This document shows positions 21,811-62,361 of a stretch of DNA of 64,000 nucleotides, piece by piece; positions within the stretch are counted from its first letter, which is position 1; each line of letters opens with the position of its first letter. Source of the DNA: Gammaproteobacteria bacterium (GTDB lineage: Bacteria; Pseudomonadota; Gammaproteobacteria; SURF-13). Location: positions 531-64,530 of the forward strand of contig JBCKVB010000002.1 in NCBI GenBank assembly GCA_038924245.1. The letters are read 5' to 3'. The position numbers and the translations under genes were made by a program. The notes beneath the pieces were generated by a model. That model searched no databases. It saw only the letters and a program-made list of their open reading frames with translations, and was not told the DNA's origin.

Positions 21811-22274
21811 CGGGCGCGCGTCTCATCCAGCCAGGTCTGCAAGATGACCTGCGCGGCGATATGGTCAATGGCGGGTTGACGACCGGCGGTCGCTCCCGGC
21901 CTCCTGCCTCCCGCGACACTAAGCCGTCCTTGGCTGGCGCGCCGGTTGTCGTTTTGTGACGCGCGCTGTGCGGCGTGCGAAGAGAGCCGCTCGTCCACGG
22001 TGTACACCGGCAGGCCGTAGCGCTGACCGAGTTGCAGGCTGAAACGCCGCGCCGCGCGCGCGACCGGGTGTTCTCCGCCCTCGCCCAGCGGCACGCCCAC
22101 CACCAGCGCGCTCGGATGCCATTCCTGGATCAGGCGCGTGATCGCCTCCCAGTCCGGCTTGTTGCCGCGCGTGGGCAGGGTGACGAGCGGCGTGGCGCTG
22201 TGGGTGAGCTTCTGCCCCACCGCCACGCCGATGCGCCGGGTTCCGTAATCAAAACCGAGCAGGGTGGAGGTCAT
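21807..22274 (-). CDS. ruvX: Holliday junction resolvase-like RuvX (YqgF), carrying an 18-codon element insertion
   Basis: LGFDYGTRRIGVAVG N-terminus and DERLSS motif. The C-terminal region is interrupted by [18 protein letters not shown], encoded by element E1. Confidence 0.88.
   Translation of the reverse strand: MTSTLLGFDYGTRRIGVAVGQKLTHSATPLVTLPTRGNKPDWEAITRLIQEWHPSALVVGVPLGEGGEHPVARAARRFSLQLGQRYGLPVYTVDERLSSHAAQRASQNDNRRASQGRLSVAGGRRPGATAGRQPAIDHIAAQVILQTWLDETRAR
21888..21941 (+). repeat. Intragenic palindromic element E1 (54 nt, subfamily III) inside ruvX
   Basis: GGTCGCTCCCGGCCTCCTGCCTCCCGCGACACTAAGCCGTCCTTGGCTGGCGCG. In-frame in ruvX, whose mRNA carries the G-rich strand. Confidence 0.9.
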
Positions 22275-22834
22275 GCGTGACCCACGTCGCCGGACAGGCG
22301 CGTGACATCCACGCCGAGCGAGGCCGCCGCCATGCTCCAGCGCTGTTCGGCGGGGGCGTGAAACAGGATGTGCGTATCGGCTTGCACGCTGAGCCAGGCG
22401 TTATCCAGCAGTTCCTGCTCCAGTTGTCCCGGCGCCCAGCCCGCGTAACCGAGCGCGGCGAGCGCCGCGCCGGGGAAGGCGTCTTGCGCGAGGGCGTTGA
22501 GAATATCGGGCGAGGTGGTGAGACTGATCCCGTCGTTCACCGGCAGGCTGCTCTCCCATTGCAACGGCGGCTGATGCAGGACAAACAGCGCGCCGGTTTG
22601 CACCGGTCCGCCGAGATAAACCGGGCGGGCGGCGATGTCCTCGCGCGCGGGGCGGAGGGAGATCTGTTCCAGCAGATAGCCGAAGTTCAGGTCGAGCGGA
22701 CGGTTGATAACGATGCCGAGCGCGCCCTCGTCATCGTGTTGACACAGGTAAATGACGCTGTGGAAAAAGTGGGGGTCCGCCAAGGAGGGCATGGCGATCA
22801 GGAAGTGATTCCGCAGGGACCCTGATTCAATCAT
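22271..22834 (-). CDS. algH: YqgE/AlgH family protein (UPF0301)
   Basis: 187 aa. LIAMPSL.DP.F..SV.Y.C.H...GA.G..INRP pattern. Confidence 0.88.
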   Translation of the reverse strand: MIESGSLRNHFLIAMPSLADPHFFHSVIYLCQHDDEGALGIVINRPLDLNFGYLLEQISLRPAREDIAARPVYLGGPVQTGALFVLHQPPLQWESSLPVNDGISLTTSPDILNALAQDAFPGAALAALGYAGWAPGQLEQELLDNAWLSVQADTHILFHAPAEQRWSMAAASLGVDVTRLSGDVGHA

Positions 22835-22921
22835 GTATCCGCATAGTATCGGTCAAAACCGCCCTGTAGCACAAGGTGCGGCAGGCTGTTTTTTTCGCCG
22901 GCGGGCCTGTGGCTCATCCGG

Positions 22922-23866
22922 CTATTGCGTGGCGAAGCGGTTGTCGTGCAAAAACTGCCAGGTGCGCGTGATGTGCAGGATATCGGTCTCTTGCAGGATG
23001 TCCTTGGGGAAGGGGGCGAAGGGGGCGGCGAGCTGCACGATGCGCATCGCGGCGTCGTCCAGCGCCTTGTGGCCGGAGGAGCGGCGCAGTTCGACGCTGC
23101 GTACCTTGCCGTCGGGATTGAGCGCCACGTCCAGCACCAGATTGCCGGAGAGATTGTTGCGCTTGGCCTCCTCCGGGTAATTGAGATTGCCGATGCGCTC
23201 CACCTTGGCGCGCCATGCCTCCATGTAGGCGGCGTATTTGTATTCGCGCGTGGCCGCGGAGATGAATTTCGCGCGCGGGCGCCGCGCGTAGGCGGCGCGC
23301 GCGTGGTTGATTTCGGCGCTTAAGCTGGCGATTTGCTGCATACTCTGCGCCACCAAATCTTGCGCGGAGGGCCTGGCGTCCGCTTGCGCATCATCAGCGG
23401 GGCTTGCCTGCGGCGCGGAGCCCGTCTTGGGCTGCGTTTTGGCGGACGGGGCGGTCTGGTGCGCGGATGGGGTGTCGGCGCTCAGCACCGGCGGTGTGGA
23501 TTTCACCTGCTCCGCGGCGGCGGGCGGCGGCGCCGTCTGTTCCACAGTGGCGGGGGGCGGCAGTTCCGGAGGCACGTCGGCATCGGTGTTGCCGCCGCCC
23601 TGCTGCTGGACGTTGGCCAGGGTGTCGGCGCGCTCCGGTTTCTGCGCCGAGGACTGGGTGACCAGCGTGATCTCCAGCGTGGACACGTGGTTTTGCAGGT
23701 TGTTTTTAAGCGCCTCGAAGTTTACGCCCAGAATCAGGATGGCGTGCAGCACGGCGGCAAAAAACAGCGTCAGCCCCAGCCGGTCATGCGTGCTCACGCC
23801 CGCACCCGCCGGGCGCGACAGGCGCTGGTCATTCCAGGGCGGCGGACTCGCTATTACCGCGGCCAT
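22922..23866 (-). CDS. tonB: TonB family energy transducer
   Basis: 314 aa. N-terminal TM segment, Pro/Ala-rich spacer, and a C-terminal TonB domain (YPEEAKRNNLSGNLVLDVALNPDGKV...). Confidence 0.8.
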   Translation of the reverse strand: MAAVIASPPPWNDQRLSRPAGAGVSTHDRLGLTLFFAAVLHAILILGVNFEALKNNLQNHVSTLEITLVTQSSAQKPERADTLANVQQQGGGNTDADVPPELPPPATVEQTAPPPAAAEQVKSTPPVLSADTPSAHQTAPSAKTQPKTGSAPQASPADDAQADARPSAQDLVAQSMQQIASLSAEINHARAAYARRPRAKFISAATREYKYAAYMEAWRAKVERIGNLNYPEEAKRNNLSGNLVLDVALNPDGKVRSVELRRSSGHKALDDAAMRIVQLAAPFAPFPKDILQETDILHITRTWQFLHDNRFATQ

Positions 23867-24003
23867 AGGCTGGTGTGCAACCTCTTTAACATGGCGTGGC
23901 TAATGATACCGCTCAGCACGCCAAAGATCACGGCCGCCGTCATGAACACCGGCAATAAATAGAACAGGCCGGGATGCGGGATGAACCAGGCATAGGCGAG
24001 CCA

Positions 24004-24068
24004 GAAGTAGCAAGAGCACTGATCTTTGTGTTTTTTCTTGCCACTTGCTACTTGCTACTTGACACTTG
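24004..24068. repeat. GCAAGT-heptad palindromic element, copy i (overlaps the gshB stop)
   Basis: GAAGTAGCAAGAGCACTGATCTTTGTGTTTTTTCTTGCCACTTGCTACTTGCTACTTGACACTTG. The arms AAGTAGCAAG / CTTGCTACTT are inverted repeats. Confidence 0.8.
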
Positions 24069-24999
24069 TTTCTCAACCGCATCGAGAAACGCCGCTGAAA
24101 TGTTTAACCCATACAATGCATCCAGTTCACGCGCGCACGTAGGGCTGGTGACGTTGATCTCGGTCAGGTAATCGCCAATCACGTCCAGGCCCACGAACAG
24201 CAAACCTTTCTCGCGCAGGGTGGGGCCAACCTGTTCGCAAATCCAGCGGTCGCGCGCCGAGAGCGGCACGCCCACGCCGTGCCCGCCCGCGGCGAGGTTG
24301 GCGCGCGTCTCGCCCGGTGCCGGCAGGCGCGCCAATGCATAGGGTACCGGCTCGCCGTTGATGAGCAGAATGCGTTTGTCGCCCGCGCTGATCTCCGGTA
24401 GGTAACGCTGCGCCATGACGAAATGCCGCGCGTACCCGGTCATGGTTTCGATAATCACGCCGATGTTGGGGATCATCCGCGCGCACGCGGAACACCGAGC
24501 TGCCGCCCATGGCGCCGAGCGGCTTTAAAATGATGTCGCCCTGCTCGTGCAAAAAATCGCGCAGTTGTCGCGGATTGCGCGTCACCAGGGTGGGCGGCGT
24601 GCACTGCGGGAACCAGGCGGTGAACAACTTTTCATTGCAGTCGCGCAGCGCGCGCGGTTTATTCACCACCAGCACGCCTTCCGCCTCGGCGCGTTCCAGC
24701 AGGTACGTGGTGTACACGTACTCCATGTCAAACGGCGGGTCTTTGCGCATCAGAATCACATCCAGCGCGGCGAGCGGCTCCGTGGTCTCCGCGCCGAAAT
24801 CAAACCAGTGCGCGGGGTCGTCCCGCACGCGTAAGCCGCGCATGCGCGCGAAGCCGCGCCCGTCGCGCAGAAACAGGTCGCCCTGTTCCATGTAGGAAAT
24901 TTTCCAGCCGCGCGCCTCCGCCGCGAGCAGCATGGCGAAGGTGGTGTCTTTTTCGATGTGTATCGTGGTGATGGGGTCCATCACCACGCCTATATGCAA
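24048..24999 (-). pseudogene. gshB: Glutathione synthetase, interrupted by a +1 frameshift in a C4 run (or sequencing error)
   Basis: The N-part (track ORF 24127..25044) matches GshB through ...[13 protein letters not shown]. The C-part (24048..24476) continues [10 protein letters not shown]...EINVTSPTC in another frame. The junction is GATGATCCCCAACATC (plus-strand GGGG at 24468-24471). The start is uncertain (TTG 24999 or ATG 24981). Confidence 0.85.
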
Positions 25000-25074
25000 G
25001 TTGCAAGTAGCAAGAGTGCTAACTGTTATGTTTTTCTTTGCCACTTGCTACTTGCTACTTACTACTTGACACTG
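24996..25074. repeat. GCAAGT-heptad palindromic element, copy ii (overlaps the gshA stop and gshB start)
   Basis: GCAAGTTGCAAGTAGCAAGAGTGCTAACTGTTATGTTTTTCTTTGCCACTTGCTACTTGCTACTTACTACTTGACACTG. Same orientation as copy i. Confidence 0.8.
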
Positions 25075-26353: not shown

Positions 26354-26531
26354 AGACTTGATCCTGATCCTTTCTCTATTCAGCCGAAGATTGGCCGGGG
26401 TCGCCAAAGCATCATATCATAAGGGCAAGCCCTAACTTCGGGTCAGGTTAAAAATCGTGTCGCAAGATGCTGATAGTCCTGTTAATCTTGTCATGATAAT
26501 CATGTCAAGACAGCGCAAACAAAGGTAGTAT

Positions 26532-26693
26532 CTAGTGTAGTGTTGCATTCTTGATGGAACTTTCGAGCAACACCTTGTAGGTCGGACTTCAGCCCGACAT
26601 GTCGCCCTGAAGGGCGACCTACAGGACGAGCCACACGTCGGCATAAGTTCCACATAGCGTGCAACACTACACTAGCACGTCCCTGTGCGTCGC
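26532..26693. repeat. MITE-like unit: 16-bp perfect terminal inverted repeats around a REP hairpin, followed by an isolated hairpin-2 module (E9)
   Basis: CTAGTGTAGTGTTGCA (26532-26547) and TGCAACACTACACTAG (26660-26675). Inner hairpin TGTAGGTCGGACTTCAGCCCGACA/TGTCGCCCTGAAGGGCGACCTACA (26576-26623). Then GCACGTCCCTGTGCGTCGC (26675-26693). Confidence 0.75.
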
Positions 26694-26740
26694 AAAAAGC
26701 GCCGGCGCATGCGGGCGCAGCCGCTGGAGGCGTTGGGCTG

Positions 26741-27204: not shown

Positions 27205-27216
27205 CGCGGTTTATTT

Positions 27217-28542
27217 TTAGCTGTCCCGCGGCAGCGCGCGCGCACCGATGTCGCGCCGGTAAAACACGCCATTCCAGCGCAGGGACTGCGCCAATTGATA
27301 GGCATTGGATTGCGCGGCGCGGTAACTCTCTCCCAGCGCGCAGGCGCACAGCACGCGCCCGCCCGCGGTGACGATATCTTTTCCCTGTTGCGCGGTACCG
27401 GCGTGAAATATCTTGGTCGCTCCCGGCATCCTGCCTCCCGCGACACTAGCACATCCCTGTGCGTCGCCGCTTGCTTTATCCAGACCATGAATCACGTCAC
27501 CCTTGCGGTAAGCGCCGGGATAGCCTTGCGCGGCGAGCACGATGCCTAAGGCAATGCGTTCATCCCACTCCGCGTGTACCTGATCGAGCCGTTTACTCAG
27601 CGCCGCCTCGGTCAGCATCACCAGATCGGAACGCAGACGCAGCAGGATGGGTTGCGCTTCCGGATCGCCCAGGCGGCAATTGAACTCCAGCACCTTGGGC
27701 GCGCCATCGGGAGCAATCATGAGACCGGCATAGAGAAAGCCGGTGTAGGGTTTGCCCTCCGCCGCCATGCCGCGCAGCGTGGGTTCGATCACCTCGCGCA
27801 GCACGCGCGCGTGTACCGCGGGCGTCACCACCGGCGCGGGCGAATACGCGCCCATGCCGCCGGTGTTCGGCCCCTGGTCGCCGTCGTCGCGGCGTTTGTG
27901 ATCCTGCGCGGTGGCGAGCGCCAGCGCGTGTTCGCCGTCCGCCAGCACGATGAAGCTCGCCTCTTCGCCGGTCAGGAATTCTTCAATCACCACGCGGCTG
28001 CCCGCCTCGCCGAGCAGCGCGCCGCTCAGCATTTCGCTTACCGCGGCGAGCGCCGTTGGCTTGTCCTCTGCGATCACCACGCCCTTGCCCGCCGCGAGGC
28101 CATCGGCCTTGATGACCAGCGGTACGCCTGTTTTGTGGATGTACGCGACGGCTTGATCGAGATCGCTGAACACCGCGTAAGCGGCGGTGGGGATGTGGTG
28201 GCGCGCCATGAAATCCTTGGCGTAGGACTTGGAGGCTTCAAGCTGCGCGGCTTCCCGCGTTGGCCCGAAGCAGCGCAAACCCGCCGCTTGAAACTGATCC
28301 ACGATACCCAGCGACAGCGGCGCCTCCGGCCCGATGATGGTGAGATCAATCTTATTGCCGCGCGCGAAGTTGACCAGCGACCCGATATCATCGGCGTCTA
28401 TGGCGATGTTTTCTGTTTTCGGCTCCTGCGCCGTGCCGGGATTGCCCGGCGCCACGAACACTCTGGTCACCCTGGGTGATTGCGCCACCTTCCACGCCAA
28501 GGCGTGCTCGCGCCCGCCGGAGCCGATGATTAAAACGCGCAT
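27217..28542 (-). CDS. purD: Phosphoribosylamine--glycine ligase, carrying an 18-codon element insertion
   Basis: 441 aa. MRVLIIGSGGREHALAWK N-terminus and ATP-grasp core. Insert [18 protein letters not shown] sits just before ...KIFHAGTA. Confidence 0.93.
   Translation of the reverse strand: MRVLIIGSGGREHALAWKVAQSPRVTRVFVAPGNPGTAQEPKTENIAIDADDIGSLVNFARGNKIDLTIIGPEAPLSLGIVDQFQAAGLRCFGPTREAAQLEASKSYAKDFMARHHIPTAAYAVFSDLDQAVAYIHKTGVPLVIKADGLAAGKGVVIAEDKPTALAAVSEMLSGALLGEAGSRVVIEEFLTGEEASFIVLADGEHALALATAQDHKRRDDGDQGPNTGGMGAYSPAPVVTPAVHARVLREVIEPTLRGMAAEGKPYTGFLYAGLMIAPDGAPKVLEFNCRLGDPEAQPILLRLRSDLVMLTEAALSKRLDQVHAEWDERIALGIVLAAQGYPGAYRKGDVIHGLDKASGDAQGCASVAGGRMPGATKIFHAGTAQQGKDIVTAGGRVLCACALGESYRAAQSNAYQLAQSLRWNGVFYRRDIGARALPRDS
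27415..27468 (+). repeat. Intragenic palindromic element E2 (54 nt, subfamily I) inside purD
   Basis: GGTCGCTCCCGGCATCCTGCCTCCCGCGACACTAGCACATCCCTGTGCGTCGCC. Confidence 0.9.
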
Positions 28543-28545: not shown

Positions 28546-30180
28546 TTAGTGCCGGAAATGGCGCATGCCGGTGAACACCATGGCGATGCCGTGCTCATTC
28601 GCCGCCGCGATCACTTCCGCGTCGCGCACCGAGCCGCCGGGCTGGATGATGGCGCTGATGCCCGCTTGCGCGGCGGTGTCCACGCCGTCGCGGAACGGGA
28701 AGAAGGCGTCGCTCGCCACCACCGCGTGCTTCAGTATGAGCCCGGCCTCCTCGGCCTTCAGCACCGCGATGCGCGCGCTGTACACGCGGCTCATCTGTCC
28801 GGCGCCGATACCGAGAGTCCGCGCATCCCTGCCGTACACGATGGCGTTGGATTTCACGAATTTGGCCACCTTCCACACAAACAGCAGGTCTTGCAGTTGT
28901 TGCGGCGTGGGTTGTCTTTCCGTCACGATCTTGAGTTGCGCGGCGCTGATGGACGCCGCATCGCACTCCTGCACCAGCAGCCCGCCCGTGACGCGCTTGT
29001 AGTCCATCCCGCCTTGCGCCGGTCGCTCCCGGCATCCTGCCTCCCGCGACACTAGCAGAACCCTTCGCTGGCGCTCTTCCCTGTGCGTCGCCGCCGGCCA
29101 CTCGCCGCAGGCCAGTACGCGCACGTTGGGTTTGCCGCTGAGCACAGCGCGCGCTTCATCCGTCACCTGTGGGGCGATGATGACCTCCACGAATTGACCC
29201 TGCACAATGCTTTGCGCCGTCTCGGCGTCGAGCGCCTGATTAAAGGCGATGATGCCGCCGAACGCCGAGGTGGGGTCGGTGGCGTGGGCGCGCCGATAGG
29301 CTTCTGAAATATTTTTCCCCAGCGCCGCCCCGCATGGATTGGCGTGCTTCACGATCACGCAGGCCGGTACCGCGCCGAAGGATTTGACGCACTCCAGCGC
29401 GGCGTCGGCGTCCACGATGTTGTTAAAGGACAGGGGTTTGCCTTGCAGTTGCGTGGCGCTTGCCACGCAGCCGCTCGGCGGACTCGGTTCGCTGTAAAAG
29501 GCGGCCTGCTGGTGCGGGTTTTCGCCGTAGCGTAGCGCTTGCAGCTTGTGGAATGAAGCAACGAAGCGCTCAGGAAACAAGTCACGCGTATTCGCATCAT
29601 GAGTGTGGCGGCCCAGATATTCGGCAATCGCCGCGTCATATTGCGCGCTATGCGCAAAGGCCTTTTGCGCCAGCATGAAGCGCGTGTCCTGGCTCACCGC
29701 GCCTTGATGGGCGCGCATCTCGGCCAACACGCGCGCATAGTCCGCGCTCTCCACCAGTACCGTGACGGCGGCATGATTTTTCGCCGCCGCGCGCAGCAGG
29801 GCCGGGCCGCCGATGTCTATGTTTTCAATCGCCGTGGCGAGATCACAGCCGGGCGTGGCGATGGTTTGGGCGAAGGGATAGAGGTTCACCGCCAGAAGAT
29901 CAATCGGCGGGATGCCGTGTTCGGCCATCACCGCGTCGTCCGTGCCGCGCCGCCCCAGCAGGCCGCCGTGGATTTTGGGGTGCAGGGTTTTCACGCGCCC
30001 CGCCATCAGCTCCGGAAAGCCGGTGTAATCGGAGACCTCGGTCACCGCGATGCCGTGTTGTGCAAGCAGTCTGGCGGTGCCGCCGGTGGAGAGTATCTGT
30101 ACGCCCAGCTCCACCAGACCGCGCGCGAACTCGACGATTCCGGATTTGTCTGAAACGCTAAGGAGGGCGCGGGTAATCAT
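28546..30180 (-). CDS. purH: Bifunctional AICAR formyltransferase / IMP cyclohydrolase, carrying a 24-codon element insertion
   Basis: 544 aa. [11 protein letters not shown]-terminus and C-terminal ...TGMRHFRH. Insert [24 protein letters not shown] lies between ACGEWPA and [16 protein letters not shown]. Confidence 0.93.
29021..29092 (+). repeat. Intragenic palindromic element E3 (72-nt long form) inside purH
   Basis: GGTCGCTCCCGGCATCCTGCCTCCCGCGACACTAGCAGAACCCTTCGCTGGCGCTCTTCCCTGTGCGTCGCC. Confidence 0.9.
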
Positions 30181-30526: not shown

Positions 30527-31593
30527 GCCGCGAGTTCCTCCGACGCACAGGGAAGAGCGACAGCGAAGGGTCCTGCTAGTGTCGCGGGAGGCAGGATGCC
30601 GGGAGCGACGCCGCCGCCGCGTTCGGCATGCTGCAGACCGTCGAAAAATTGCCGGGTGATGGCCAATTGTTGCGCGCTGCTGGCGGCCGCGTTGATGGTT
30701 TGGCGAAACTGCGCGCTGCCGTTCTGCCCCTTGCTGTACCAGGACAGATGTTTGCGCGCCATCAGCACGCCGGTGTGCTCGCCGTAAAAGGCGTACAGGT
30801 TGCGCATGTGGCCCATCAGAATGGCGCGGATTTCGGCCACGCCCGGCTCCGGCATGATCCGGCCCGTTTCCAGATAATGCTGGATGGCGCGGAACAGCCA
30901 CGGGCGGCCTTGCGCCGCGCGCCCGATCATGATCCCGTCGGCGCGCGTGTAGTCGAGCACGAATTGCGCCTGTTCGGGTGTGCTGATGTCGCCGCCCGCG
31001 ATCACCGGGATGCGTACTTCTGATTTGATCGCGGCGATGGTGTCGTATTCGGCCTCGCCGCCGAAGGCGCAGGCGCGCGTGCGCCCGTGCACCGCCAGCG
31101 CCTGGATGCCGCATTGCTCCGCGATGCGCGCCACGGCGACGCCGTTGCGGTGCTGTCTGTCCCAGCCGGTGCGGATTTTTAATGTCACCGGCGCCGGCGC
31201 CGCGCGCACCACAGCTTCGAGAATACGCGCGACCAGTGATTCGTCCTGCAACAGCGCCGAGCCCGCCATCACGTTGCACACCTTCTTCGCCGGACAGCCC
31301 ATGTTGATGTCTATGATCTGCGCGCCGTTGTCCACGTTGTATTTGGCCGCTTCGGCCATGAGCCTGGGATCGGCCCCGGCGATCTGGATGATACGCGGCT
31401 CGGTCTCGCCCTCGTGGTTGGCGCGGCGCCGGGTTTTCGCGCTGCCCCACAGGAGTGAATTGGAAGACACCATCTCCGACACCGCCATGCCCGCGCCGAG
31501 CTGTTTGCACAACTGGCGGAACGGACGGTCGGTGACGCCCGCCATGGGCGCCAGAATCAGATTGTTGCTTAATTTATACGGGCCGATTTGCAT
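30523..31593 (-). CDS. dusB: tRNA-dihydrouridine synthase B, with an element insertion in the C-terminal tail
   Basis: 356 aa. LAPMAGVTDRPFR N-terminus. The tail ...[35 protein letters not shown] is encoded by element E4. Confidence 0.9.
   Translation of the reverse strand: MQIGPYKLSNNLILAPMAGVTDRPFRQLCKQLGAGMAVSEMVSSNSLLWGSAKTRRRANHEGETEPRIIQIAGADPRLMAEAAKYNVDNGAQIIDINMGCPAKKVCNVMAGSALLQDESLVARILEAVVRAAPAPVTLKIRTGWDRQHRNGVAVARIAEQCGIQALAVHGRTRACAFGGEAEYDTIAAIKSEVRIPVIAGGDISTPEQAQFVLDYTRADGIMIGRAAQGRPWLFRAIQHYLETGRIMPEPGVAEIRAILMGHMRNLYAFYGEHTGVLMARKHLSWYSKGQNGSAQFRQTINAAASSAQQLAITRQFFDGLQHAERGGGVAPGILPPATLAGPFAVALPCASEELAA
30540..30610 (-). repeat. Intragenic palindromic element E4 (long form) at the 3' end of dusB
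   Basis: The minus strand reads GTCGCTCCCGGCATCCTGCCTCCCGCGACACTAGCAGGACCCTTCGCTGTCGCTCTTCCCTGTGCGTCG. Boundaries are good to about 2 nt. Confidence 0.85.
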
Positions 31594-32471: not shown

Positions 32472-32562
32472 GGTTTACCGGGTATCTGCAAAGCGGAATC
32501 GTGCTGTGCAATAAAACGAAGGCCAGTATACCGCATTGGTGTTTTTTTCGCCATTAGGGAAG

Positions 32563-32705
32563 CTCTGAATAAGTCCATCCTGGACTTCTCAGAGCACGAA
32601 AAGCAAAAACGTGGCCATAAGAATTATTATGGTGCTTTTCTTCATTTTTCAAACACTTCCGTGTTTGAAAAATGGCGGCACATCCCTGTGCCGCAGGAAC
32701 CTCTA
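32563..32705 (+). repeat. Modular multi-hairpin element, copy A (C-rich loops on the plus strand)
   Basis: H1 32563-32594 CTCTGAATAAGTCC-ATCCT-GGACTTCTCAGAG. H2 GAAAAGCA...TGCTTTTC. H3 TTTTTCAAACAC-TTCC-GTGTTTGAAAAA. H4 32676-32693 CGGCAC-ATCCCT-GTGCCG. Confidence 0.85.
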
Positions 32706-32720
32706 ACTTAATCAGGTTCA

Positions 32721-34166
32721 TTACTGCTTGGTTTCCAGTGCCAACTGCGCCTCCAGGTCCTTGAGCCGCGCCTCGATTCTGGATCCCTGATAGAAATCGT
32801 TTTCCTTGAAGCGCGAGGCGATCTTGAGCTGCTCTATGGCGGAGGCCGTGGCGCCGTTTAAATAGTAGTATTCGGCCAGCGCCTGATGCGCCTCGCCGGG
32901 CAGCCCCGCCGCGCCGCGCGCCTCGGCCAGCAGCTTGTAGGTCTCGGCATCGTTGTATTGCGCGCGCCCGTGCCTTTCCAGCAGCGCCGCCGCCTCGCGT
33001 GCCTGCCCTGCTTGCAGCAGGGCGCGCCCGTAGCCCAGGGTCAACGCATGATTGCCGGGATGGAGCTTGAGCGCGTCATGGTAGATACTCACCGCCTGCG
33101 CCGTGCGCCGGCCGGCGAGCTCGATCTCGGCCAGCAGCAGCGCGTAGGCGGACTGATCCGGGCTCTTGTCCAGCAGCGCGCGCGCCTCCTTGCGCGCCGA
33201 TTCATAATCGCCGTTGCGCAGCAGCGCCCAGGCGTAACCATAGCGCTCCGCCGCGCGATCCGGGTTTTGCTTCAGGCCTTGCGCGGAACGTTTCAGCGCC
33301 TCTTTGGGATTTTTCTCACCCAGCACGCGCAGCTTGGCGCGCACCAGGTGATAGCTGAGGCTGTCGCTCACCTGGCGGTACGGATACTGTTCAGCGCGGT
33401 TACGCGTATCGGCGATACGCGCCACGGTGACGGGGTGAGTGCGCAAATAGTCGGGCAAGTTGGAACCGGCATAACGCGTGGCCTGCTGCAGGCGCTCGAA
33501 AAACACCGGCGTGGCGCGCGGGTCGAAACCGGCGCGCGCCAGGGTCTGGATGCCGATACGGTCCGCCTCCTCTTCATTGGAGCGCGTGAAATTGATCTGG
33601 GTCTGCACGATGCCGGCCTGGGTGGCGGCGAGCGCCGCCTGCCCCATTTGACTGTTCTGCGTGCTGAGCAGAATGCCGGCGATGAGCGCCGCCGCCGCGG
33701 GCAGGCTGAGCTTGTCCGCCGCCTCGAAGGCGCGCGCCAGGTGGCGCTGCGTCACGTGCGCGATTTCATGCGCGATCACCGAGGCCAGCTCGCTTTCCGA
33801 TTCGGAGGCGAGGATCAGCCCGCTGTTCACGCCGATGTAACCGCCCGGCCCGGCGAAGGCGTTGATGCTAGGGTCTTGCACCACGAAGAAGTGATAGTCG
33901 CGCGCCGCATCGTCGCTGTTGGAGGCAATGCGGTAGCCGAGCGCTCGCAGGTAGCCGGTGACTTCCGCGTCATCCATGATGGTGATCTGCTGGCGCAGCT
34001 CACGCATGAAGGCTTCGCCCATGCGCCGGTCCTGTTCGGCGGAAAGCGTGCTGGCGGCGCTATCGCCGATATCGGGCAGGTCGAGGTTAAGCCGCGCTTC
34101 GCCCTGCGCGGACATCCACAGCAGGCTGAGCAGGCAGAGCAAGGCAAGGCGTACGGTTGAGTTCAT
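32721..34166 (-). CDS. M48 family metalloprotease with TPR repeats (BepA/YfgC-like)
   Basis: 481 aa. Signal peptide, HEIAHVTQRH zinc motif, TPR-like C-terminal half. Confidence 0.85.
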   Translation of the reverse strand: MNSTVRLALLCLLSLLWMSAQGEARLNLDLPDIGDSAASTLSAEQDRRMGEAFMRELRQQITIMDDAEVTGYLRALGYRIASNSDDAARDYHFFVVQDPSINAFAGPGGYIGVNSGLILASESESELASVIAHEIAHVTQRHLARAFEAADKLSLPAAAALIAGILLSTQNSQMGQAALAATQAGIVQTQINFTRSNEEEADRIGIQTLARAGFDPRATPVFFERLQQATRYAGSNLPDYLRTHPVTVARIADTRNRAEQYPYRQVSDSLSYHLVRAKLRVLGEKNPKEALKRSAQGLKQNPDRAAERYGYAWALLRNGDYESARKEARALLDKSPDQSAYALLLAEIELAGRRTAQAVSIYHDALKLHPGNHALTLGYGRALLQAGQAREAAALLERHGRAQYNDAETYKLLAEARGAAGLPGEAHQALAEYYYLNGATASAIEQLKIASRFKENDFYQGSRIEARLKDLEAQLALETKQ

Positions 34167-34246
34167 GGCGTTATAGGCTTAAGACCCTGTCCGTGGCCAA
34201 TAGGTTCGAGTGCGCGCTCGCCTGTGCCATCTGCTTAGCTTAAGAA

Positions 34247-34440
34247 CTCTGAAAAACCCGTCCCTGGGATTTTTCAGAGACGGCCGCTCCTGCGCGTCCC
34301 TGCGCCCGCGGCATTGGGGCGTCCTGCCCGGCAAAAATAAAAAAACGTGGTTTTTTATTTTCTTCATTTTTCAAACACTTGACGTGTTTGAAAAATGGCG
34401 GTGCCTCCATGCACCGCACGGAACCTCTGACACATCAGAG
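34247..34440 (+). repeat. Modular multi-hairpin element, copy B (expanded)
   Basis: CTCTGAAAAACCC-GTCCCT-GGGATTTTTCAGAG; GCGC-GTCCCT-GCGC; GGGC-GTCCT-GCCC; an A/T hairpin; TTTTTCAAACAC-TTGAC-GTGTTTGAAAAA; CGGTGC-CTCCAT-GCACCG; CTCTGA-CACA-TCAGAG. Confidence 0.85.
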
Positions 34441-34496
34441 ATTCCTTTATACTGTTCAATTTTAGCGCAATCTGTATTCCAACCCAAGGAAAGTTC

Positions 34497-35885: not shown

Positions 35886-36368
35886 CTATTCCTGTTTGGG
35901 CGGCGGCGGGCTGGACATCTTCATCTCGCTTTGGTGCACCACGATGGAGCTGATGCGCAACGCGCCCAGCACAAACAGCAGCGCGCTCAAGGCATACAGC
36001 TCTTCGACGGTGATTTTGTGCTCGAAGAGTTTTATCATGACCTCGCGCAGGATGAACACGATGCCCGCGTCCACGATGAAGGTCATGCGCAAGCGGTGGG
36101 TGGTGAAATAATTCGCCAGCGAGCGCGATAGCTCGACCAGGATAAACAGCGTGAGCACGTCCGTGATGAGGCGCTGATATTGGCGCGTGAGGTCTTCATG
36201 GAGCGCCAGGTCGCCCAGGTTGAGAAACAGGCGCAGTACGCCGATGATGATGCCGAGGGTGATGAACGCCAGCAGCACGCCCAATGCCCAGCTTATCACC
36301 TTTTCAAACAGCGCTAATGGACGGATCTTCATGACGTGTTCAAACAGCGCTAATGGACGGATCTTCAT
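35886..36368 (-). CDS. PsiE-like (phosphate-starvation-inducible E family) membrane protein with a duplicated N-terminus
   Basis: 160 aa with 4 predicted TM segments. The N-terminus MKIRPLALFEHV-MKIRPLALFEKV arises from a 36-bp tandem duplication. Confidence 0.6.
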   Translation of the reverse strand: MKIRPLALFEHVMKIRPLALFEKVISWALGVLLAFITLGIIIGVLRLFLNLGDLALHEDLTRQYQRLITDVLTLFILVELSRSLANYFTTHRLRMTFIVDAGIVFILREVMIKLFEHKITVEELYALSALLFVLGALRISSIVVHQSEMKMSSPPPPKQE

Positions 36369-39945: not shown

Positions 39946-39982
39946 GTAGGGTGGGCAGACGATAACCCTGTCTGCCCACCCT
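39946..39982. repeat. REP hairpin (GTAGGGTGGGCAGAC family)
   Basis: GTAGGGTGGGCAGAC-GATAACCCT-GTCTGCCCACCCT with a 13-bp perfect stem. A related copy lies at 51512-51545. Confidence 0.8.
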
Positions 39983-42149: not shown

Positions 42150-44209
42150 TATGGTTGAGGCGTCACGTCCGGCATACGCACACGTAAAGGCACTATCTCC
42201 CGCCCCATGCGGCTGCTGAAGATAGTGGTGTAGGCCATCACCTGCTGCACATAATTGCGTGTTTCAGTAAAGGGTATATTCTCCACCCAGATGTCGGAGG
42301 GCAGGTCTTGCTCTTCCGGACGCCACTGCCGGGCGCGTTGCGGCCCGGCGTTATAGGATGCCGTGGCGAGCGCCTGATGTTGTTCATTTTTGTCCAGCAC
42401 GTGGCGTAGATAGGCGGCGCCGAATTCGATATTTTTATCCACGTCGAATAACTCCTTCACGTGCCTGATCGGGTCGCCCAGCAGACGTGCAACGGCTTTT
42501 CCAGTGGCGGGCATGAGCTGCATCAAGCCGATCGCACCCGCGCTCGAGCGTGCATCGCTCACGAATGCGCTCTCCTGGCGTATCACGCCATACACCCAGG
42601 CCGGGTCGAGATCCTGTTGTTGTGCATTGGCCAGCACTTGTTCGCGGTACAGCAGGGGAAAGCGCAACTCAAGATCGTCCGTCACCTTGGCCTTGATCAG
42701 CGTGAGGATGGCGCGATCATGCCAGCCCCAGCGCGCGGCGAGCGACGCGGCCATGTGCAAGTGGCGTTGGTCCAGGGTGCGCGGCAAGTGATCCCACTCG
42801 CGCCGTGCTTCGCTTATCAGGCCAAGCTGATAAAGCTCATAGGCTTGCGCCACGCCCAAATACCGGCTCAACACCGCCAATTCTTCTTCGCTCGCCGCCA
42901 CGGATGAGTGGTTCATCTGATACGGCTGATTAAGCCGGTCGGCGGCGAGAAAACCGTAATAGCTGCGCTCGCGCGCGAGCTCCGAAAAAATCCGCTCAGC
43001 CTTGGATAGTCGCTCATGGCGTCCTGCCTCCCGCGACACTGGCACGTCCCTGTGCGGCGCAGGATGAGCCTGTGCGGAGGAGGGCTTGCTCTGGACGGGG
43101 GCGGTTTGCGCCAGCGCGCGCGCCTTCCAGTAGCGCCACGAGGGTTTATCACGCAGGGCCGCCGGCATGTCCGCAATGGCGCTCAGTACCGCGGGCCAGT
43201 CTTGTTGCAGCAACGCCGCGCGTACGCGCCATTCATGCGCGTTGTCGTCCAGCACCGTGCCGGGTACGGCGGCGAACAAGGTTGCCGCGAGAGGATCATG
43301 CTGCATGGCGGCGGCGAGCGCGATGTCGCGTTCGGTTTCGCCTGTCTCCTGCGCGCTGAAGGCGTAGCGGGGCTTGATGCTCCACCACTTATTATGAGCG
43401 AGACCGGCGTTGCCGCGCGCCATGCGTTTGATCGCGTAGCGCAGGATTTCACGCGCGCGCTGATGATCTTTTTTAAAGTCGGGATGATCGAGCAATGCGG
43501 CGGGGTCTTTATATGAACGCCGCCAGTGCTCCGCCCATTTACGATCCGCCGCGCCGAGGTCTTTGGAAAAATGCGCGGCCAAGCCCGGCTCGCGGTTGTC
43601 CATGGCGAGCCGGACACGCTGCCAGATCATGTCATTGGTCAGGCCGCCTTGAGCGCGCCAGCTTTTAAACACCGCGTCGCATTCCGCCGGTTGCGAGCGC
43701 CCCACCAGCCACAGTGTCTTGGCTTCATCGAGCCAGTCGGCGGCGGATGTTTGCCCGATCCCGGTTGCGAGACGCGCGCGTAACTGCAAACAATGCAGCG
43801 CCACGCCCTGCATGCCTGGATAGGGCTGGTAAACGCGCAGGAAATCTCCCCAGCGTTTCTGTTGCGCGAGATGCGTCAGCCAGGCGGCGCGCAAGCGGTT
43901 GCTCACCGAGGACTGGACGTAATCCTGAATAAATTGCTCTATTTCCCGTTCCGGCGTCTCGGCGAGATGATCCCTGATCTCGTCATAGCGCAGATAGCTT
44001 TGCAGCGGGTAACCTTCCAGGCGATTGAGCAGGCGCTGAAAAGTTTTTTGGTCGTCCACCTGGTATGCCTTGCGTGCGGCGAGAAAGTCATCGCGCTGCC
44101 GCTCGGTTTTCGCCTGTTTGCCCGGGTCGTCGGCTGGCGCGGTGGAGGGAAACAGCAGGGTGAGGGCGCCCAGCAGGACTCCCGCCAGACAGTGGTGCAT
44201 CCATTTCAT
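42149..44209 (-). CDS. slt: Soluble lytic murein transglycosylase (Slt70-like), carrying an element insertion
   Basis: 686 aa. Signal peptide, superhelical repeats, and a C-terminal SLT domain (VIRQESAF...GLMQL...YNAG). Insert APHRDVPVSREAGRHERL lies in the repeat region. Confidence 0.88.
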   Translation of the reverse strand: MKWMHHCLAGVLLGALTLLFPSTAPADDPGKQAKTERQRDDFLAARKAYQVDDQKTFQRLLNRLEGYPLQSYLRYDEIRDHLAETPEREIEQFIQDYVQSSVSNRLRAAWLTHLAQQKRWGDFLRVYQPYPGMQGVALHCLQLRARLATGIGQTSAADWLDEAKTLWLVGRSQPAECDAVFKSWRAQGGLTNDMIWQRVRLAMDNREPGLAAHFSKDLGAADRKWAEHWRRSYKDPAALLDHPDFKKDHQRAREILRYAIKRMARGNAGLAHNKWWSIKPRYAFSAQETGETERDIALAAAMQHDPLAATLFAAVPGTVLDDNAHEWRVRAALLQQDWPAVLSAIADMPAALRDKPSWRYWKARALAQTAPVQSKPSSAQAHPAPHRDVPVSREAGRHERLSKAERIFSELARERSYYGFLAADRLNQPYQMNHSSVAASEEELAVLSRYLGVAQAYELYQLGLISEARREWDHLPRTLDQRHLHMAASLAARWGWHDRAILTLIKAKVTDDLELRFPLLYREQVLANAQQQDLDPAWVYGVIRQESAFVSDARSSAGAIGLMQLMPATGKAVARLLGDPIRHVKELFDVDKNIEFGAAYLRHVLDKNEQHQALATASYNAGPQRARQWRPEEQDLPSDIWVENIPFTETRNYVQQVMAYTTIFSSRMGREIVPLRVRMPDVTPQP
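43008..43060 (+). repeat. Intragenic palindromic element E5 (subfamily II variant) inside slt
   Basis: AGTCGCTCATGGCGTCCTGCCTCCCGCGACACTGGCACGTCCCTGTGCGGCGC. It has CTGG instead of CTAG. Confidence 0.85.
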
Positions 44210-47790: not shown

Positions 47791-48582
47791 TCACGCGTGC
47801 GCCGCACAGGGAGGTGCCAGTGTCGCGGGAGGCAGGACGCCGGGAGCGACCAGTCGCTCTGCAATAGCTTCGCCGTCCCCGATGGGCGGTTCGTCACCGT
47901 CTTTTAAAGTGTATCCCAAGCATACGCCAATCTGCTCGGCGAGTTTATCTCCAATCTCGGAAAGCTTCGCCGTGATTCCCAGGCTGCGCATATCGGTTAC
48001 GTGCAGGTCGGCATGACCACACGGGTGGATACGTGTAAACGGCTCCAAGTCCATCGCCACATTGAGGCTCACGCCGTGATAGCTACAGCCTTGCCGAACG
48101 CGCAGCCCCAGGGCCGCAATCTTCGCGCCGTTGACATAAACGCCTGGCGCCTCACGGCGAGCCTCACCCGGTACGCTGTAGTCCGCAAGCAGCTCGATCA
48201 CGGACTGTTCCAATGCGTTCACCAACTGGCGCACGCCGAGGCCGCGCCGCCGCAAGTCGAGCAGCACGTAGCACACGAGCTGGCCGGGGCCATGATAAGT
48301 CACTTGTCCGCCGCGGTCGGCGTGAATCACGGGAATGTCTCGCGGCGGTCGCTCCCGGCGTCCTGCCTCCCGCGACACTAGCACGTCCCTGTGCGGCGCA
48401 GGCACGTGTTCACGCTTTGCGTTGAGACCAAGGGTATATACCGGCGGATGTTCTACCAGCCAGATTTCATCGGGTGTGGAGTTTGTGCGCGCCGCGCTGA
48501 ACTCGCGCATCGCCTCCCACACCGGCAGGTAGTCACGCAAGCCGAGTTCACGCACGATGATATCGGTGTGTGCGTTAGACAT
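47791..48582 (-). CDS. lipB: Octanoyltransferase LipB, carrying two element insertions
   Basis: 263 aa (about 50 aa longer than usual). WLVEHPPVYTLG and ADRGGQVTYHGPGQ motifs. One internal insert (E7) and one C-terminal insert (E6). Confidence 0.88.
   Translation of the reverse strand: MSNAHTDIIVRELGLRDYLPVWEAMREFSAARTNSTPDEIWLVEHPPVYTLGLNAKREHVPAPHRDVLVSREAGRRERPPRDIPVIHADRGGQVTYHGPGQLVCYVLLDLRRRGLGVRQLVNALEQSVIELLADYSVPGEARREAPGVYVNGAKIAALGLRVRQGCSYHGVSLNVAMDLEPFTRIHPCGHADLHVTDMRSLGITAKLSEIGDKLAEQIGVCLGYTLKDGDEPPIGDGEAIAERLVAPGVLPPATLAPPCAAHA
47799..47851 (-). repeat. Intragenic palindromic element E6 (subfamily II) in the last ~20 codons of lipB
   Basis: The minus strand reads GGTCGCTCCCGGCGTCCTGCCTCCCGCGACACTGGCACCTCCCTGTGCGGCGC, translated [17 protein letters not shown]. 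Confidence 0.88.
48347..48399 (+). repeat. Intragenic palindromic element E7 (subfamily II) inside lipB
   Basis: GGTCGCTCCCGGCGTCCTGCCTCCCGCGACACTAGCACGTCCCTGTGCGGCGC. 51 of 53 bases are identical to E6, in inverted orientation. Confidence 0.9.
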
Positions 48583-51511: not shown

Positions 51512-51575
51512 GTGGGCAGACGATAACCCTGTCTGTCCACCCTACCCACTTGCCACTTGCTACTTGCCTCTTGTG
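51512..51575. repeat. REP hairpin plus GCAAGT-heptad element (copy iii)
   Basis: GTGGGCAGACGATAACCCTGTCTGTCCACCCTAC followed by CCACTTGCCACTTGCTACTTGCCTCTTGTG. Confidence 0.7.
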
Positions 51576-55727: not shown

Positions 55728-55730
55728 TAT

Positions 55731-57179: not shown

Positions 57180-58262
<1,083 letters not shown>

Positions 58263-58335
58263 TTACCAATGCGGGGGACTTTGGGCAAGCGCCGAAGTAT
58301 GATAAGTTGCCTATTTTCACGGATCAGGGTGAACC

Positions 58336-58626
58336 ATGGCGCTTACTGCCTCCGACGTCAAAAAAATCGCTCACCTGGCGCGGCTCGCCGTCGCCGAACG
58401 GGACATCCCGGCTTATGCGCGCAATCTGTCCAATATCATGGGTCTGGTGGAGCAGATGAGCGCGGTGGATACCCGCGAGGTGCAGCCCATGGCGCACCCG
58501 CTGGAACTGCCCGCGCGCCTCAGGCCTGACCAAATCAGCGAAACCAATCAGCGCGAACTGTTTCAATCCATTGCGCCCAGGGTGGAGGCCGGGCTGTATC
58601 TGGTGCCTAAAGTTATAGAGCAGTAG
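58336..58626 (+). CDS. gatC: Glu-tRNA(Gln)/Asp-tRNA(Asn) amidotransferase subunit C
   Basis: 96 aa. ...VKKIAHLARL... start; divergent from mreB and followed by gatA. Confidence 0.9.
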   Translation: MALTASDVKKIAHLARLAVAERDIPAYARNLSNIMGLVEQMSAVDTREVQPMAHPLELPARLRPDQISETNQRELFQSIAPRVEAGLYLVPKVIEQ

Positions 58627-58662
58627 CAAGTGACAAGTAGTAAGTGGCAAGAATAAAAAACC
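58621..58662. repeat. GCAAGT-heptad element, copy iv (supplies the gatC stop codon)
   Basis: CAGTAGCAAGTGACAAGTAGTAAGTGGCAAGAATAAAAAACC, in reverse orientation relative to copies i-iii. Confidence 0.75.
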
Positions 58663-58700
58663 AGCCTTAGCCGCTCACCGCCAGCAAATTACTAAAAAAT

Positions 58701-60155
<1,455 letters not shown>

Positions 60156-60211
60156 ACAAGACGCGATAGCTTGCTTTGAGGCGGCATGCTTGCATGCCGG
60201 GCATACGCCTA

Positions 60212-60244
60212 TATAACGCTTGACGTAAAACGTATGGCGTTATA
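60212..60244 (+). promoter_or_regulatory. Candidate higBA promoter/operator
   Basis: Inverted repeat TATAACGC-N17-GCGTTATA (60212-60219 / 60237-60244) enclosing TTGACG, 12 nt upstream of the higB GTG. Confidence 0.4.
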
Positions 60245-60255
60245 CCCTGAAGCGG

Positions 60256-60534
60256 GTGATTAAAGCCTTTCGCTGCAAAGATACCGAAGCCCTGTTTCAG
60301 GGCAAGGGCTGTGCAAGATTTCGCAATATCGAACGGGTTGCACAGCGCAAACTAAAACAGCTTGACGCCGCGACCCGGCTCGCCGATCTCACGATCTTCC
60401 CCGGCAGCCGGCTGGAGGCTTTACGCGGCAATCGCAAAGGCCAGCACAGTATTCGCATTAACGCCCAATGGCGTGTTTGTTTTTCATGGCGCGGCGGATT
60501 CGCCTATGAGGTCGAGATTGTCGATTACCATTGA
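60256..60534 (+). CDS. higB: HigB-type toxin (RelE/ParE superfamily, plasmid-killer family)
   Basis: 92 aa. MIKAFRCKDTEALFQG...RINAQWRVCF...VEIVDYH is the typical HigB pattern. The toxin is encoded first. Confidence 0.85.
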   Translation: MIKAFRCKDTEALFQGKGCARFRNIERVAQRKLKQLDAATRLADLTIFPGSRLEALRGNRKGQHSIRINAQWRVCFSWRGGFAYEVEIVDYH

Positions 60535-60546
60535 AGGAGCGAAATT

Positions 60547-60849
60547 ATGAGGACTAAACAGTTGCCGCCTGTTCATCCGGGAGAGATACTGCTTGAAGAA
60601 TTGATGATCCCTCTGGGCATCACGGCCAATGCCTTGGCGCGCGACCTGCGGGTGCCTGCCACGCGCATCTCCGAGATCATCAAGGGCAACCGGGCCGTCA
60701 CCGCGGACACCGCCTTGCGTCTGGCGCGCTACTTCGGCAATTCACCCCAGTTCTGGATGAATCTGCAATCCAGCCACGACTTGGACGTGGTGCAGCGGCT
60801 ATCCATGCCGGAGATAACGAGGTCGGTATTGCCGAGGAAAGCCGCTTAG
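60547..60849 (+). CDS. higA: HigA-type antitoxin (XRE-family HTH)
   Basis: 100 aa. PVHPGEILLEE...GITANALARDLRVPATRISEIIKGNRAVTADTALRLARYFG. Confidence 0.85.
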   Translation: MRTKQLPPVHPGEILLEELMIPLGITANALARDLRVPATRISEIIKGNRAVTADTALRLARYFGNSPQFWMNLQSSHDLDVVQRLSMPEITRSVLPRKAA

Positions 60850-60855
60850 GCGCCG

Positions 60856-62361
60856 ATGCCGATGGAATGGGAAACCGTCATTGGCCTTGAAGTTCACGCG
60901 CAGCTGGCCACGCGCAGCAAAATCTTTTCCGGCGCGCCTACCGCCTATGGCGCGCTACCCAACACCCAGGCCTGCGCCATTGATCTGGGGATGCCCGGCG
61001 TGCTGCCGGTGTTGAACGAAGAGGCGGTGCGCATGGCGGTGAAGTTCGGCCTCGCCGTCGGCGCCAAGGTCGCGCCGCGCTCGGTGTTCGCGCGCAAGAA
61101 TTATTTTTATCCAGATCTGCCAAAAGGCTATCAGATCAGCCAGTACGAATTGCCGGTGGTGGCGCAAGGCAAGATCGAGATCGAGCTGGAGGACGGCGGC
61201 GCCAAGACTATCGGCATCACGCGCGCGCACCTGGAAGAGGACGCGGGTAAATCACTGCACGAAGATGCCATTGGGAAGACGGGCGGCATGAGCGCCATTG
61301 ATCTCAATCGCGCCGGCACGCCGTTATTGGAGATCGTCTCCGAGCCCGACATGCGCTCGGCCAAGGAGGCGGTGGCCTACATGAAAAAAATCCACTCGCT
61401 GGTGCGTTATCTGGAAATCTGCGACGGCAACATGCAGGAAGGCTCGTTCCGCTGCGACGCCAACGTCTCGGTGCGGCCCAAGGGCCAGCATGAATTCGGC
61501 ACGCGCGCCGAGTTGAAAAACATCAACTCATTCCGCTTTGTCGAGAAGGCCATCAACTATGAAGTGCGGCGCCAGATCGAACTGCTGGAAGGCGGCGGCA
61601 GCGTGGCGCAGGAGACGCGTTTATATGATGCCGACAAGGACGAGACGCGGCCCATGCGCAGCAAGGAAGAAGCCAACGACTACCGCTATTTCCCCGACCC
61701 GGATTTGCTGCCGCTGGAAATTGACGCGGGGTTTATTGAAACCGTGCGCAAGACCCTGCCGGAATTGCCGGACCAGAAAAAACAGCGCTTCATCAAAGAC
61801 TACGCACTGACGCCCTATGAAGCGGGCGTGTTGACCTCCAGCCGCGAACTCGCGGCTTATTATGAAGACGCGGTGCGCGGCGGTCGCTCCCGGCGTCCTG
61901 CCTCCCGCGACACTAAGCCGTCCTTGGCTGGCGCGGGGGGCGGGGAGCCCAAGCTGTGCGCCAACTGGGTGCTGGGCGAGCTGCTGGGCGCGCTCAACAA
62001 AAATAACCTGGACATCAACGCCAGCCCGGTCAGCCCCGCGCAGCTTGCCGGTATGCTCAAGCGCATCGGCGACAACACCATCTCCGGCAAGATCGCCAAA
62101 CAGGTGTTCGATGCCATGTGGCACGGCGAGGGCGATGCGGACGCGGTGATCGCCGCCAAGGGCTTGAAACAAGTCACCGACAGCGGCGCGATTGAAAAGG
62201 TGATTGATGAGGTGATTAAAAAATTCCCAGAACAGCTCGCGCAATACCGCAGCGGTCAGGAAAAATTATTCACCTTCTTCGTCGGCCAGGTGATGAAGGC
62301 GAGCCAGGGCAAGGCCAACCCGGCGCAGGTCAATGAACTGCTGAAGGAAAAGCTCAAGTAG
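60856..62361 (+). CDS. gatB: Amidotransferase subunit B, carrying an 18-codon element insertion
   Basis: 501 aa. [14 protein letters not shown]-terminus. Insert [18 protein letters not shown] lies between ...YYEDAVRG and [16 protein letters not shown]. The start is 6 nt after the higA stop. Confidence 0.93.
61882..61935 (+). repeat. Intragenic palindromic element E8 (54 nt, subfamily III) inside gatB
   Basis: GGTCGCTCCCGGCGTCCTGCCTCCCGCGACACTAAGCCGTCCTTGGCTGGCGCG. gatB mRNA carries the C-rich strand. Confidence 0.9.

Follow-up and report, generated by a model that had tools for sequence, protein, structure and literature searches.

How does the same short piece of DNA come to stand, in frame, inside several unrelated housekeeping genes of one genome? 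The question is raised by a 64,000-nucleotide stretch of a gammaproteobacterium of the SURF-13 lineage (GenBank assembly GCA_038924245.1, contig JBCKVB010000002.1, positions 531 to 64,530), which is referred to as the window throughout. The window holds eight full copies, E1 to E8, of an element made of two adjacent hairpins. Three of them, E3, E6 and E7, are insertions, as judged from near-identical or close strains whose sequences lack them. The element is probably a small, non-autonomous mobile DNA of the repetitive extragenic palindrome (REP) or Rickettsia palindromic element (RPE) type, which would be moved in trans and tolerated in genes.

Copies and structure of the element

All eight copies contain a 17-nucleotide (nt) core, CCTGCCTCCCGCGACAC, which occurs exactly eight times in the window, six times on the + strand and twice on the - strand (starts at 21903+, 27430+, 29036+, 30579-, 43023+, 47820-, 48362+ and 61897+). 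When up to three mismatches to the core were allowed, 0.51 matches were expected by chance, and eight were reached in no shuffle. The copies could be aligned over about 52 columns, beyond which the similarity was gone. A covariance model trained on copies from other genomes, and then run on the window, scored E1 to E8 at 55 to 82 bits. NCBIfam assigned the hosts to RuvX, PurD, PurH, DusB, an Slt-type transglycosylase, LipB (two copies) and GatB. Every host open reading frame (ORF) is open, and every one exceeds the length of its family profile. An earlier, sequence-only reading had placed eight copies in housekeeping genes with intact frames, and in these respects it was correct.

Six of the copies are 51 nt long. 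E1 (21888-21938; 70.5 bits) has its C-rich strand on the + strand and lies in ruvX, which is encoded on the - strand. E2 (27415-27465, +; 82.1 bits) is inside purD, E5 (43008-43058, +; 71.5 bits) inside slt, the lytic transglycosylase gene, and E8 (61882-61932, +; 73.1 bits) inside gatB, a gene on the + strand. lipB carries both E6 (47801-47851, -), located two codons ahead of the stop, and E7 (48347-48397, +), located inside the gene. The other two copies are 69-nt long forms: E3 (29021-29089, +), inside purH, and E4 (30542-30610, -), in the C-terminal tail of DusB. E4 falls within the last 28 codons of dusB and ends 5 codons ahead of the stop; it is also about 20 nt upstream of the start of fis, which overlaps the end of dusB (GTGA).

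It had been claimed that no full copy is intergenic. This holds for full copies, but two weaker intergenic relatives were detected. A type B variant, GGCCGCTCCTGCGCGTCCCTGCGCCCGCGGCATTGGGGCGTCCTGCCCGGC (34282-34333, +; 28.8 bits, E = 4e-4), is nested in a 207-nt intergenic insertion and was also found at three loci of other genomes (L028, L032 and L094; L-numbers denote loci or contigs from other genomes); the 207-nt block around it is absent from L120. A 3' half, ACTAGCACGTCCCTGTGCGTCGC, with a decayed 5' half (26660-26694, +; 26.3 bits) is likewise present in L119 and L120. The location of all eight full copies inside genes is not significant in itself, because the coding density is about 90% and 0.9^8 is about 0.43.

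E1 and E8 (21884-21941 and 61878-61935) match at 98% over a stretch that takes in 4 nt of left flank, and have a rare hairpin-2 variant in common (AAGCC GTCC TTGGCT). This identity and the common variant suggest that one arose recently from the other or that the two share a source lineage.

The basic unit comprises 51 nt and the long form 69 nt, or 17 and 23 codons, as established by empty-site alleles and by tandem arrays with a 51-nt period. Both the size of 54 or 72 nt (18 or 24 codons) and the single palindrome proposed from the sequence had therefore to be given up. The 51-nt consensus, G-GTCGC-TCCC-GGCR-TCC-TGCC-TCCC-GCGAC-ACTW-GYRCN-TCCC-TGYRC-RKC, contains two different hairpins, both subterminal, in a fixed unit. 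Hairpin 1 (GTCGC-TCCC-GGCR-TCC-TGCC-TCCC-GCGAC) is long and has a symmetric internal loop; hairpin 2 (GYRCN-TCCC-TGYRC) is short, with a 5-bp stem starting from a G-C pair and a 4-nt loop, TCCC. Among 132 copies, the conserved block extended from the first element position, e1 (G, 82%), through e51 and was followed by G at +1 (89%), with a pyrimidine at -1 in 77%. At the 3' end, positions e48 to e51 were C (0.90), G (0.68), T (0.73) and C (0.92), the first C doubling as the last base of the stem. There were no terminal inverted repeats (5' GGTCGC versus 3' ..GCGTC).

The stems vary in a paired manner. In hairpin 2, the stem pairs were GCAC/GTGC (32), GTAC/GTAC (14), GTGC/GCAC (12) and others. 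Changes on both sides occurred in 55 cells, versus 14 in shuffles; pairing reached 96%, versus 19 to 58% with the partner slid; and four of four pairs were kept in 107 of 131 unfiltered copies. Diverged copies carried the compensatory changes GGCCGC/GCGGC, GGTCCC/GGGAC and GGTCAC/GTGAC in hairpin 1. The z-score from single-sequence folding was not significant; the structure is supported solely by this covariation. The loops (TCC/TCCC), the internal loops and the linker were conserved and the stems variable, which would be the pattern expected where a protein reads a folded strand. Moreover, the base 5' of the hairpin-2 foot covaried with the 3' terminal bases (A-GT in 30, G-GG in 11 and T-AT in 12), and in 10 of 95 copies, where 3.5 were expected, the tetranucleotide of the left flank was the same as the 3' end of that copy.

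The long form arises from an 18-nt module (G strand roughly AGAGCGNNAGCGAAGGGW) placed after a GGGA loop, which takes 51 nt to 69 nt. The module occupies 29053-29072 and 30559-30578 in the long forms of the window and lies at about 9309 and about 12395 in L120. There it occurs in tandem in the E4 copy, giving 87 nt, and as an addition inside hairpin 1 of the E2 copy; E2 was also found in L119. Tandem arrays in other genomes had two or three units at orthologous sites, and nested copies also occurred. A valyl-tRNA synthetase-like ORF at about 2128-2400 of L074 contains two or three copies, arranged in tandem or nested. Genes in L038, L079, L097, L107 and L111 likewise carry two or three such copies each, and their number varies between orthologous sites.

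The case is not peculiar to this genome; near-identical copies were found in many Gammaproteobacteria and beyond. An exact 19-mer of the element was present in at least 114 contigs of a species-representative genome collection. Its hosts among metagenome-assembled genomes (MAGs) included Acidiferrobacterales, Sedimenticolaceae, Thiohalomonadales, Ectothiorhodospiraceae, Lysobacterales/Rhodanobacter and Cellvibrionales; the isolates included Nitrosomonas eutropha Nm57, Lacimicrobium alkaliphilum, Gilvimarinus xylanilyticus HB14 and HTCC2207. A plasmid of Lonsdalea populi N-5-1 carries a variant copy in frame within a DNA primase gene. The hosts thus span several orders of Gamma- and Betaproteobacteria. 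No copy was found in phage records, IMG/VR viral contigs or E. coli genomes, and Rfam, at gathering and permissive thresholds, returned only a chance 16-bit match.

Empty sites and reading frames

The clearest pair of filled and empty alleles concerns E6. L115, which has 12 mismatches to the window across 11,774 nt, is without E6, the gap being exactly 51 nt. Its empty site reads GAGCGACT up to the junction and GCACGCG after it, and the filled site reads ACT[GGTCGC...GTGCGGC]GCAC. In this one unambiguous case there is no target duplication, just a one-base G ambiguity. In L116, which like L115 is closer to the window, E6 and E7 are both missing, each as a 51-nt gap. In the distant L117, E7 is missing as a 51-nt gap and the E6 site is occupied. 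E7 is present in L115 and missing from most LipB homologues. Among these homologues, one that is 100% identical to the window protein lacks E6, one at 88% identity has neither insert, and one at 75% identity lacks E7 and has its E6 site filled by a longer, nested copy. L120 (about 97% identical) lacks E3, with a gap of 72 nt, which equals the 69-nt element plus one CCG/GGC triplet. Over about 45 kb compared, three window copies were missing from relatives and no copy of a relative was missing from the window.

Solved orthologues gave the same picture. The E. coli YqgF alignment stops at E1; PurD, aligned with 3mjf_A, has 14 extra residues at E2; the alignment of PurH with 3zzm_A is interrupted at residues 360/386, at E3; and about 19 residues are missing at E8 from P. 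aeruginosa GatB (4wj3_B). The segments are thus missing from the solved orthologues P. aeruginosa GatB, M. tuberculosis PurH, LipB, Y. pestis/E. coli PurD and YqgF. Because close relatives have insert-free alleles and the orthologous structures lack the segments, these are insertions, as had been proposed from the sequence.

Other sites are occupied in relatives as well. The slt site orthologous to E5 is filled in L116 by the 69-nt form, and one site in tgt has orthologous copies in four divergent genomes. Since some sites, such as that in tgt, are common to divergent genomes, the family includes old as well as very recent insertions. In the one unbiased pair, conservation of the element at such a common site did not exceed that of its flanks (0.75 versus 0.79 identity), the other pairs being biased by the choice of loci.

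All forms of the element (51, 69 and 87 nt) are multiples of 3. The CTAG in the consensus creates one stop frame per strand, and variants without it have none; four of the six frames are therefore stop-free, and the eight window copies occupy exactly these four. We assembled 28 high-confidence coding copies from all genomes by strict criteria, with a random-position control. None of the 28 used a stop frame, and 23 entered their gene between two codons, which a Y^G/C^R target in GC-rich genes would lead one to expect. DAQGxASVAGGRxPGAT is encoded by eighteen of them. In other genomes, 77% of copies lay in ORFs of at least 200 codons, versus 87% of random positions in the same loci, so the family barely avoids genes.

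An AlphaFold2 model of LipB had a mean predicted local distance difference test (pLDDT) score of 82, with values below 50 just at residues 66-79 (E7) and 246-262 (E6). In this model both inserts appear disordered, E7 internally and E6 at the C-terminal tail, and the LipB fold is predicted to stay intact.

Probable movement of the element and rival explanations

As we picture the mobile element, it would insert at a Y^G step without target duplication. The step would be remade at both element ends, which would explain the tandem and nested copies: landing beside or within an existing copy would give 51-nt tandem arrays or nested copies. Because the length is divisible by 3 and there is at most one stop frame per strand, translation would continue across genic insertions and add 17 or 23 residues, with G, A, S, P and R abundant among them, in loops or tails, and insertions hitting the stop frame or a structural core would be purged by selection. 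A trans-acting enzyme would recognize the single strand in its folded form, by way of conserved loops and variable stems. This enzyme could possibly be an HUH/Y1 transposase of the type of IS200/IS605 and the REP-associated tyrosine transposases (RAYT). What favors this type is that the ends are asymmetric, that both hairpins are subterminal, that duplication is lacking, that the covariation resembles a guide and that E6 may have been lost precisely, and we put it forward as a tentative candidate.

Several observations weigh against this picture. ORF clustering over 114 loci (about 0.9 Mb) revealed no recurrent protein family or transposase beside the copies, the window held no RAYT gene flanked by the element, and the inverted copy pairs in L066 and L067 enclosed no transposase. 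A phmmer search with IS608 TnpA and an E. coli RAYT returned a lone RAYT-like ORF (L058, 5326-6114), which is flanked by unrelated REPs (TTCCCACGCTCCAGCGTGGGAA) and whose translation had no Pfam match. The apparent target is a weak motif, with enrichment of only a Y at -1 and a G at e1 (Y^G), unlike in IS200/IS605, where a well-defined target of 4 to 5 nt lies immediately 5' of the left end. The empty E3 allele is shorter by 72 nt and not by 69, through a 3-nt duplication or an independent slip in a CCG run. E6 occupies an identical point in the window and in the distant L117, yet it is absent from the closer L115 and L116, a distribution that would need precise excision, allele exchange or repeated insertion. 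Wobble pairs (G.T 16 versus A.C 29) did not identify the folding strand. The low pLDDT of the inserts may partly reflect empty alignment columns, and translation of the inserts into 17 or 23 extra residues is something that we infer.

The conserved loops could have another meaning. Selection experiments (systematic evolution of ligands by exponential enrichment, SELEX) gave the consensus RUACARGGAUGU for CsrA, with a preference for GGA in hairpin loops (PMC4347634). On its G strand the element has GGA or GGGA loops, hairpin 2 having the form xxACAGGGAUGUxx and hairpin 1 the tip CAGGAUG. The full consensus was present in 13 of 108 distinct copies, CARGGAUG in 38 and CAGGA[UAC]G in 101, and there were 3.8 GGA motifs per copy on the G strand versus 0.04 on the C strand. 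The element might then be a functional RNA module, a pair of CsrA/RsmA-binding hairpins whose transcribed G-rich strand would confer Csr/Rsm control or titrate the regulator. Such a module would account for the conservation of the loops across orders, and the identical loop type occurs in other repeats of this genome. The G-rich strand was the mRNA sense strand in 21 of the 28 high-confidence coding copies (21:7), a bias that could equally come from peptide tolerance or from gene or replication strand bias. However, about a quarter of the coding copies, and three of the eight in the window, have the opposite orientation; CsrA binding would leave the conserved GTCGC/GCGAC stems and the ACACT linker without explanation; and insertion polymorphism among near-identical strains looks selfish, not regulatory. 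We consider it unlikely that the element is primarily such a module. A combined version, a coding-adapted mobile element whose GGA-loop hairpins double as portable CsrA/RsmA sites, would have each insertion add a protein loop and rewire control of the host mRNA, with movement by a hairpin-specific enzyme capable of precise excision; we hold this to be improbable.

Homologous exchange would offer a direct account of the E6 distribution. If filled and empty alleles moved by recombination and copies homogenized each other, a copy could be shared with a distant genome and missing from closer ones. The swap of short and long forms at one slt site and the orthologous copies at one tgt site in four divergent genomes also fit. 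Nevertheless, recombination cannot place copies in eight unrelated genes at new sites that lack homology, nor does it explain the rare variant common to E1 and E8 at unrelated loci or the tandem and nested copies. Element identity was close to flank identity where selection bias was absent, and strong homogenization is thus not needed. As a full explanation, exchange has in our judgment a poor chance of being right.

Two further readings have very little probability. In the first, the element would be removed before the protein is made or matured, as an intron, a translational-bypass element or an intein. T4 gene 60 is a known case of translational bypass; the element is close in size to known bypass gaps and is strongly structured. 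A removed segment, however, would need neither a length that is always a multiple of 3 nor stop-free frames only, and the element is found in genes in both orientations, matches no Rfam ribozyme or intron and is far below intein size. In the second, the element would be a classical MITE (a miniature transposable element with inverted repeats), derived by deletion from a DDE insertion sequence. Being small, repeated, polymorphic and non-coding alone, it resembles one; the lack of terminal inverted repeats, and of a target duplication in the clean E6 case, speaks against such an origin. Finally, the reading of the segments as ancestral protein parts or assembly artefacts, which has nothing in its favor apart from their occurrence in MAG-type assemblies, is refuted by the insert-free alleles of close relatives, runs against the solved orthologues, the use of four different frames by a single DNA sequence and the presence of the element in independent assemblies, isolates and a finished plasmid, and is given practically no credence.

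Neighboring repeats and known systems

The window also contains other small repeats. Two types of GTAG-tagged REPs form head-to-head dimers in intergenic DNA, at 13625-13692, 18100-18167 and 26574-26622. If translated, the dimer at 26.57 kb, TGTAGGTCGGACTTCAGCCCGAC..GTCGCCCTGAAGGGCGACCTACA, would give VGRASAR.., which resembles the Thioalkalivibrio GTAG-5 peptides reported by Di Nocera, De Gregorio and Rocco in 2013 (PMC3733652). A MITE-like intergenic element of about 150 to 207 nt is present at 32558-32724 and 34238-34444 of the window and at 4249-4396 of L117, and absent from L120; it carries the GG(G)A-loop hairpins GCGGCACAGGGATGTGCCGC and GTCCAGGATGGAC, and the 34-kb copy has the variant 51-nt element nested in it. 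Intergenic arrays of an ACTTGC-type short repeat (CACTTGCTACTTGCTACTTG...) were seen at about 23992-24068, at 24992-25068 and near 51549 and 58646, with copy numbers that vary between near-identical strains (indels of 14, 21 and 41 nt). A 36-nt tandem duplication in a gene start region (36295-36366) is absent from L120, and a 32-nt hairpin repeat, GTGGGCAGACGATAACCCTGTCTGCCCACCCT, has two intergenic copies that are 97% identical (39951-39982 and 51512-51543).

If the preferred reading of E1 to E8 as a mobile element is right, 17- and 23-residue "loops" in the annotation and alignments of many uncultured Gammaproteobacteria would be selfish DNA, which the covariance model can flag. The element bears on how well proteins tolerate random loop insertions. 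The natural filled and empty alleles in near-identical strains offer a tractable case for the movement of small repeats that have no transposase of their own, a question left open for CGTC-type REPs in PMC3733652. Should it be true that the GGA loops bind CsrA/RsmA, mobile DNA would be linked to global post-transcriptional regulation.

Among described repeats, the closest relatives in behavior are the GTAG and CGTC REPs. These were reported inside genes of many species, including Thioalkalivibrio, together with Rickettsia RPE-4 and RPE-6 (PMC3733652), which corrects the earlier statement that in-frame coding palindromes are known chiefly from Rickettsia. They are single stem-loops of 20 to 40 nt, mostly intergenic, and the CGTC class lacks its own transposase. 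CGTC stems are 8 to 9 bp, begin with A-T pairs and have a loop of 4 to 5 nt and a CCA tail. The element shares with them short interspersed hairpin repeats, some wholly within known genes and in frame, and the occurrence of dimers, clusters and nested units; its 3' end also matches the CGTC consensus. In contrast to CGTC REPs, its hairpin-2 stem has 5 bp and starts from G-C, its TCC/TCCC loops are conserved, it has no CCA tail, and it has a second hairpin. All eight full window copies are genic, unlike the mostly intergenic GTAG/CGTC REPs. The peptides and sequences of the element were absent from the tables and supplements of PMC3733652, and full-text searches with its sequence strings returned no relevant paper; on in-frame repeats, only RPE and REP reports were found. 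The suggestion that the repeat is undescribed therefore stands for the family and falls for the phenomenon.

The classical REP is a single imperfect palindrome of 20 to 40 nt and predominantly extragenic, whereas the element is a fixed 51-nt unit of two hairpins with 77% of its copies elsewhere in long ORFs; its consensus has no GTAG/CTAC, and its linker is ACT[A/T/G]G. With the REP/REPIN-RAYT systems and the IS200/IS605-derived palindrome-associated transposable elements (PATEs), it has in common the lack of terminal inverted repeats and of target duplication, the subterminal hairpins and, presumably, the recognition of folded hairpins. The covariation of its hairpin-2 foot base with its terminal bases resembles the guide/cleavage-site pairing of IS608, which was reportedly described by Barabas et al. 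in 2008. It differs from these systems in having no GTAG tag, an apparent target of only Y^G and a length much below that of known PATEs, and no flanking RAYT or TnpA gene was found in the window or the loci of about 0.9 Mb. Like CsrB/RsmZ-type RNAs, the element presents several GGA motifs in hairpin loops, matching RUACARGGAUGU or CAGGAUG, but it is not an independent small RNA gene and is embedded in coding DNA in both orientations.

The resemblance to RPEs pointed out by the sequence-only reading is apt. Both are selfish repeats found in frame in unrelated housekeeping genes, with the ORF preserved and the inserted peptide predicted where the protein fold stays undisturbed. RPEs of the RPE-1 type (Ogata et al. 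2000, as summarized in PMC10969869) measure about 100 to 150 bp, occur in Rickettsia only and encode, in a single frame, a conserved peptide; the element, in contrast, is 51 or 69 nt, uses four frames and has hosts among Gamma- and Betaproteobacteria. Since the family itself was not found described and in-frame REPs and RPEs already are, the element counts as a new family within a kind that is already known, and not as a kind of its own.

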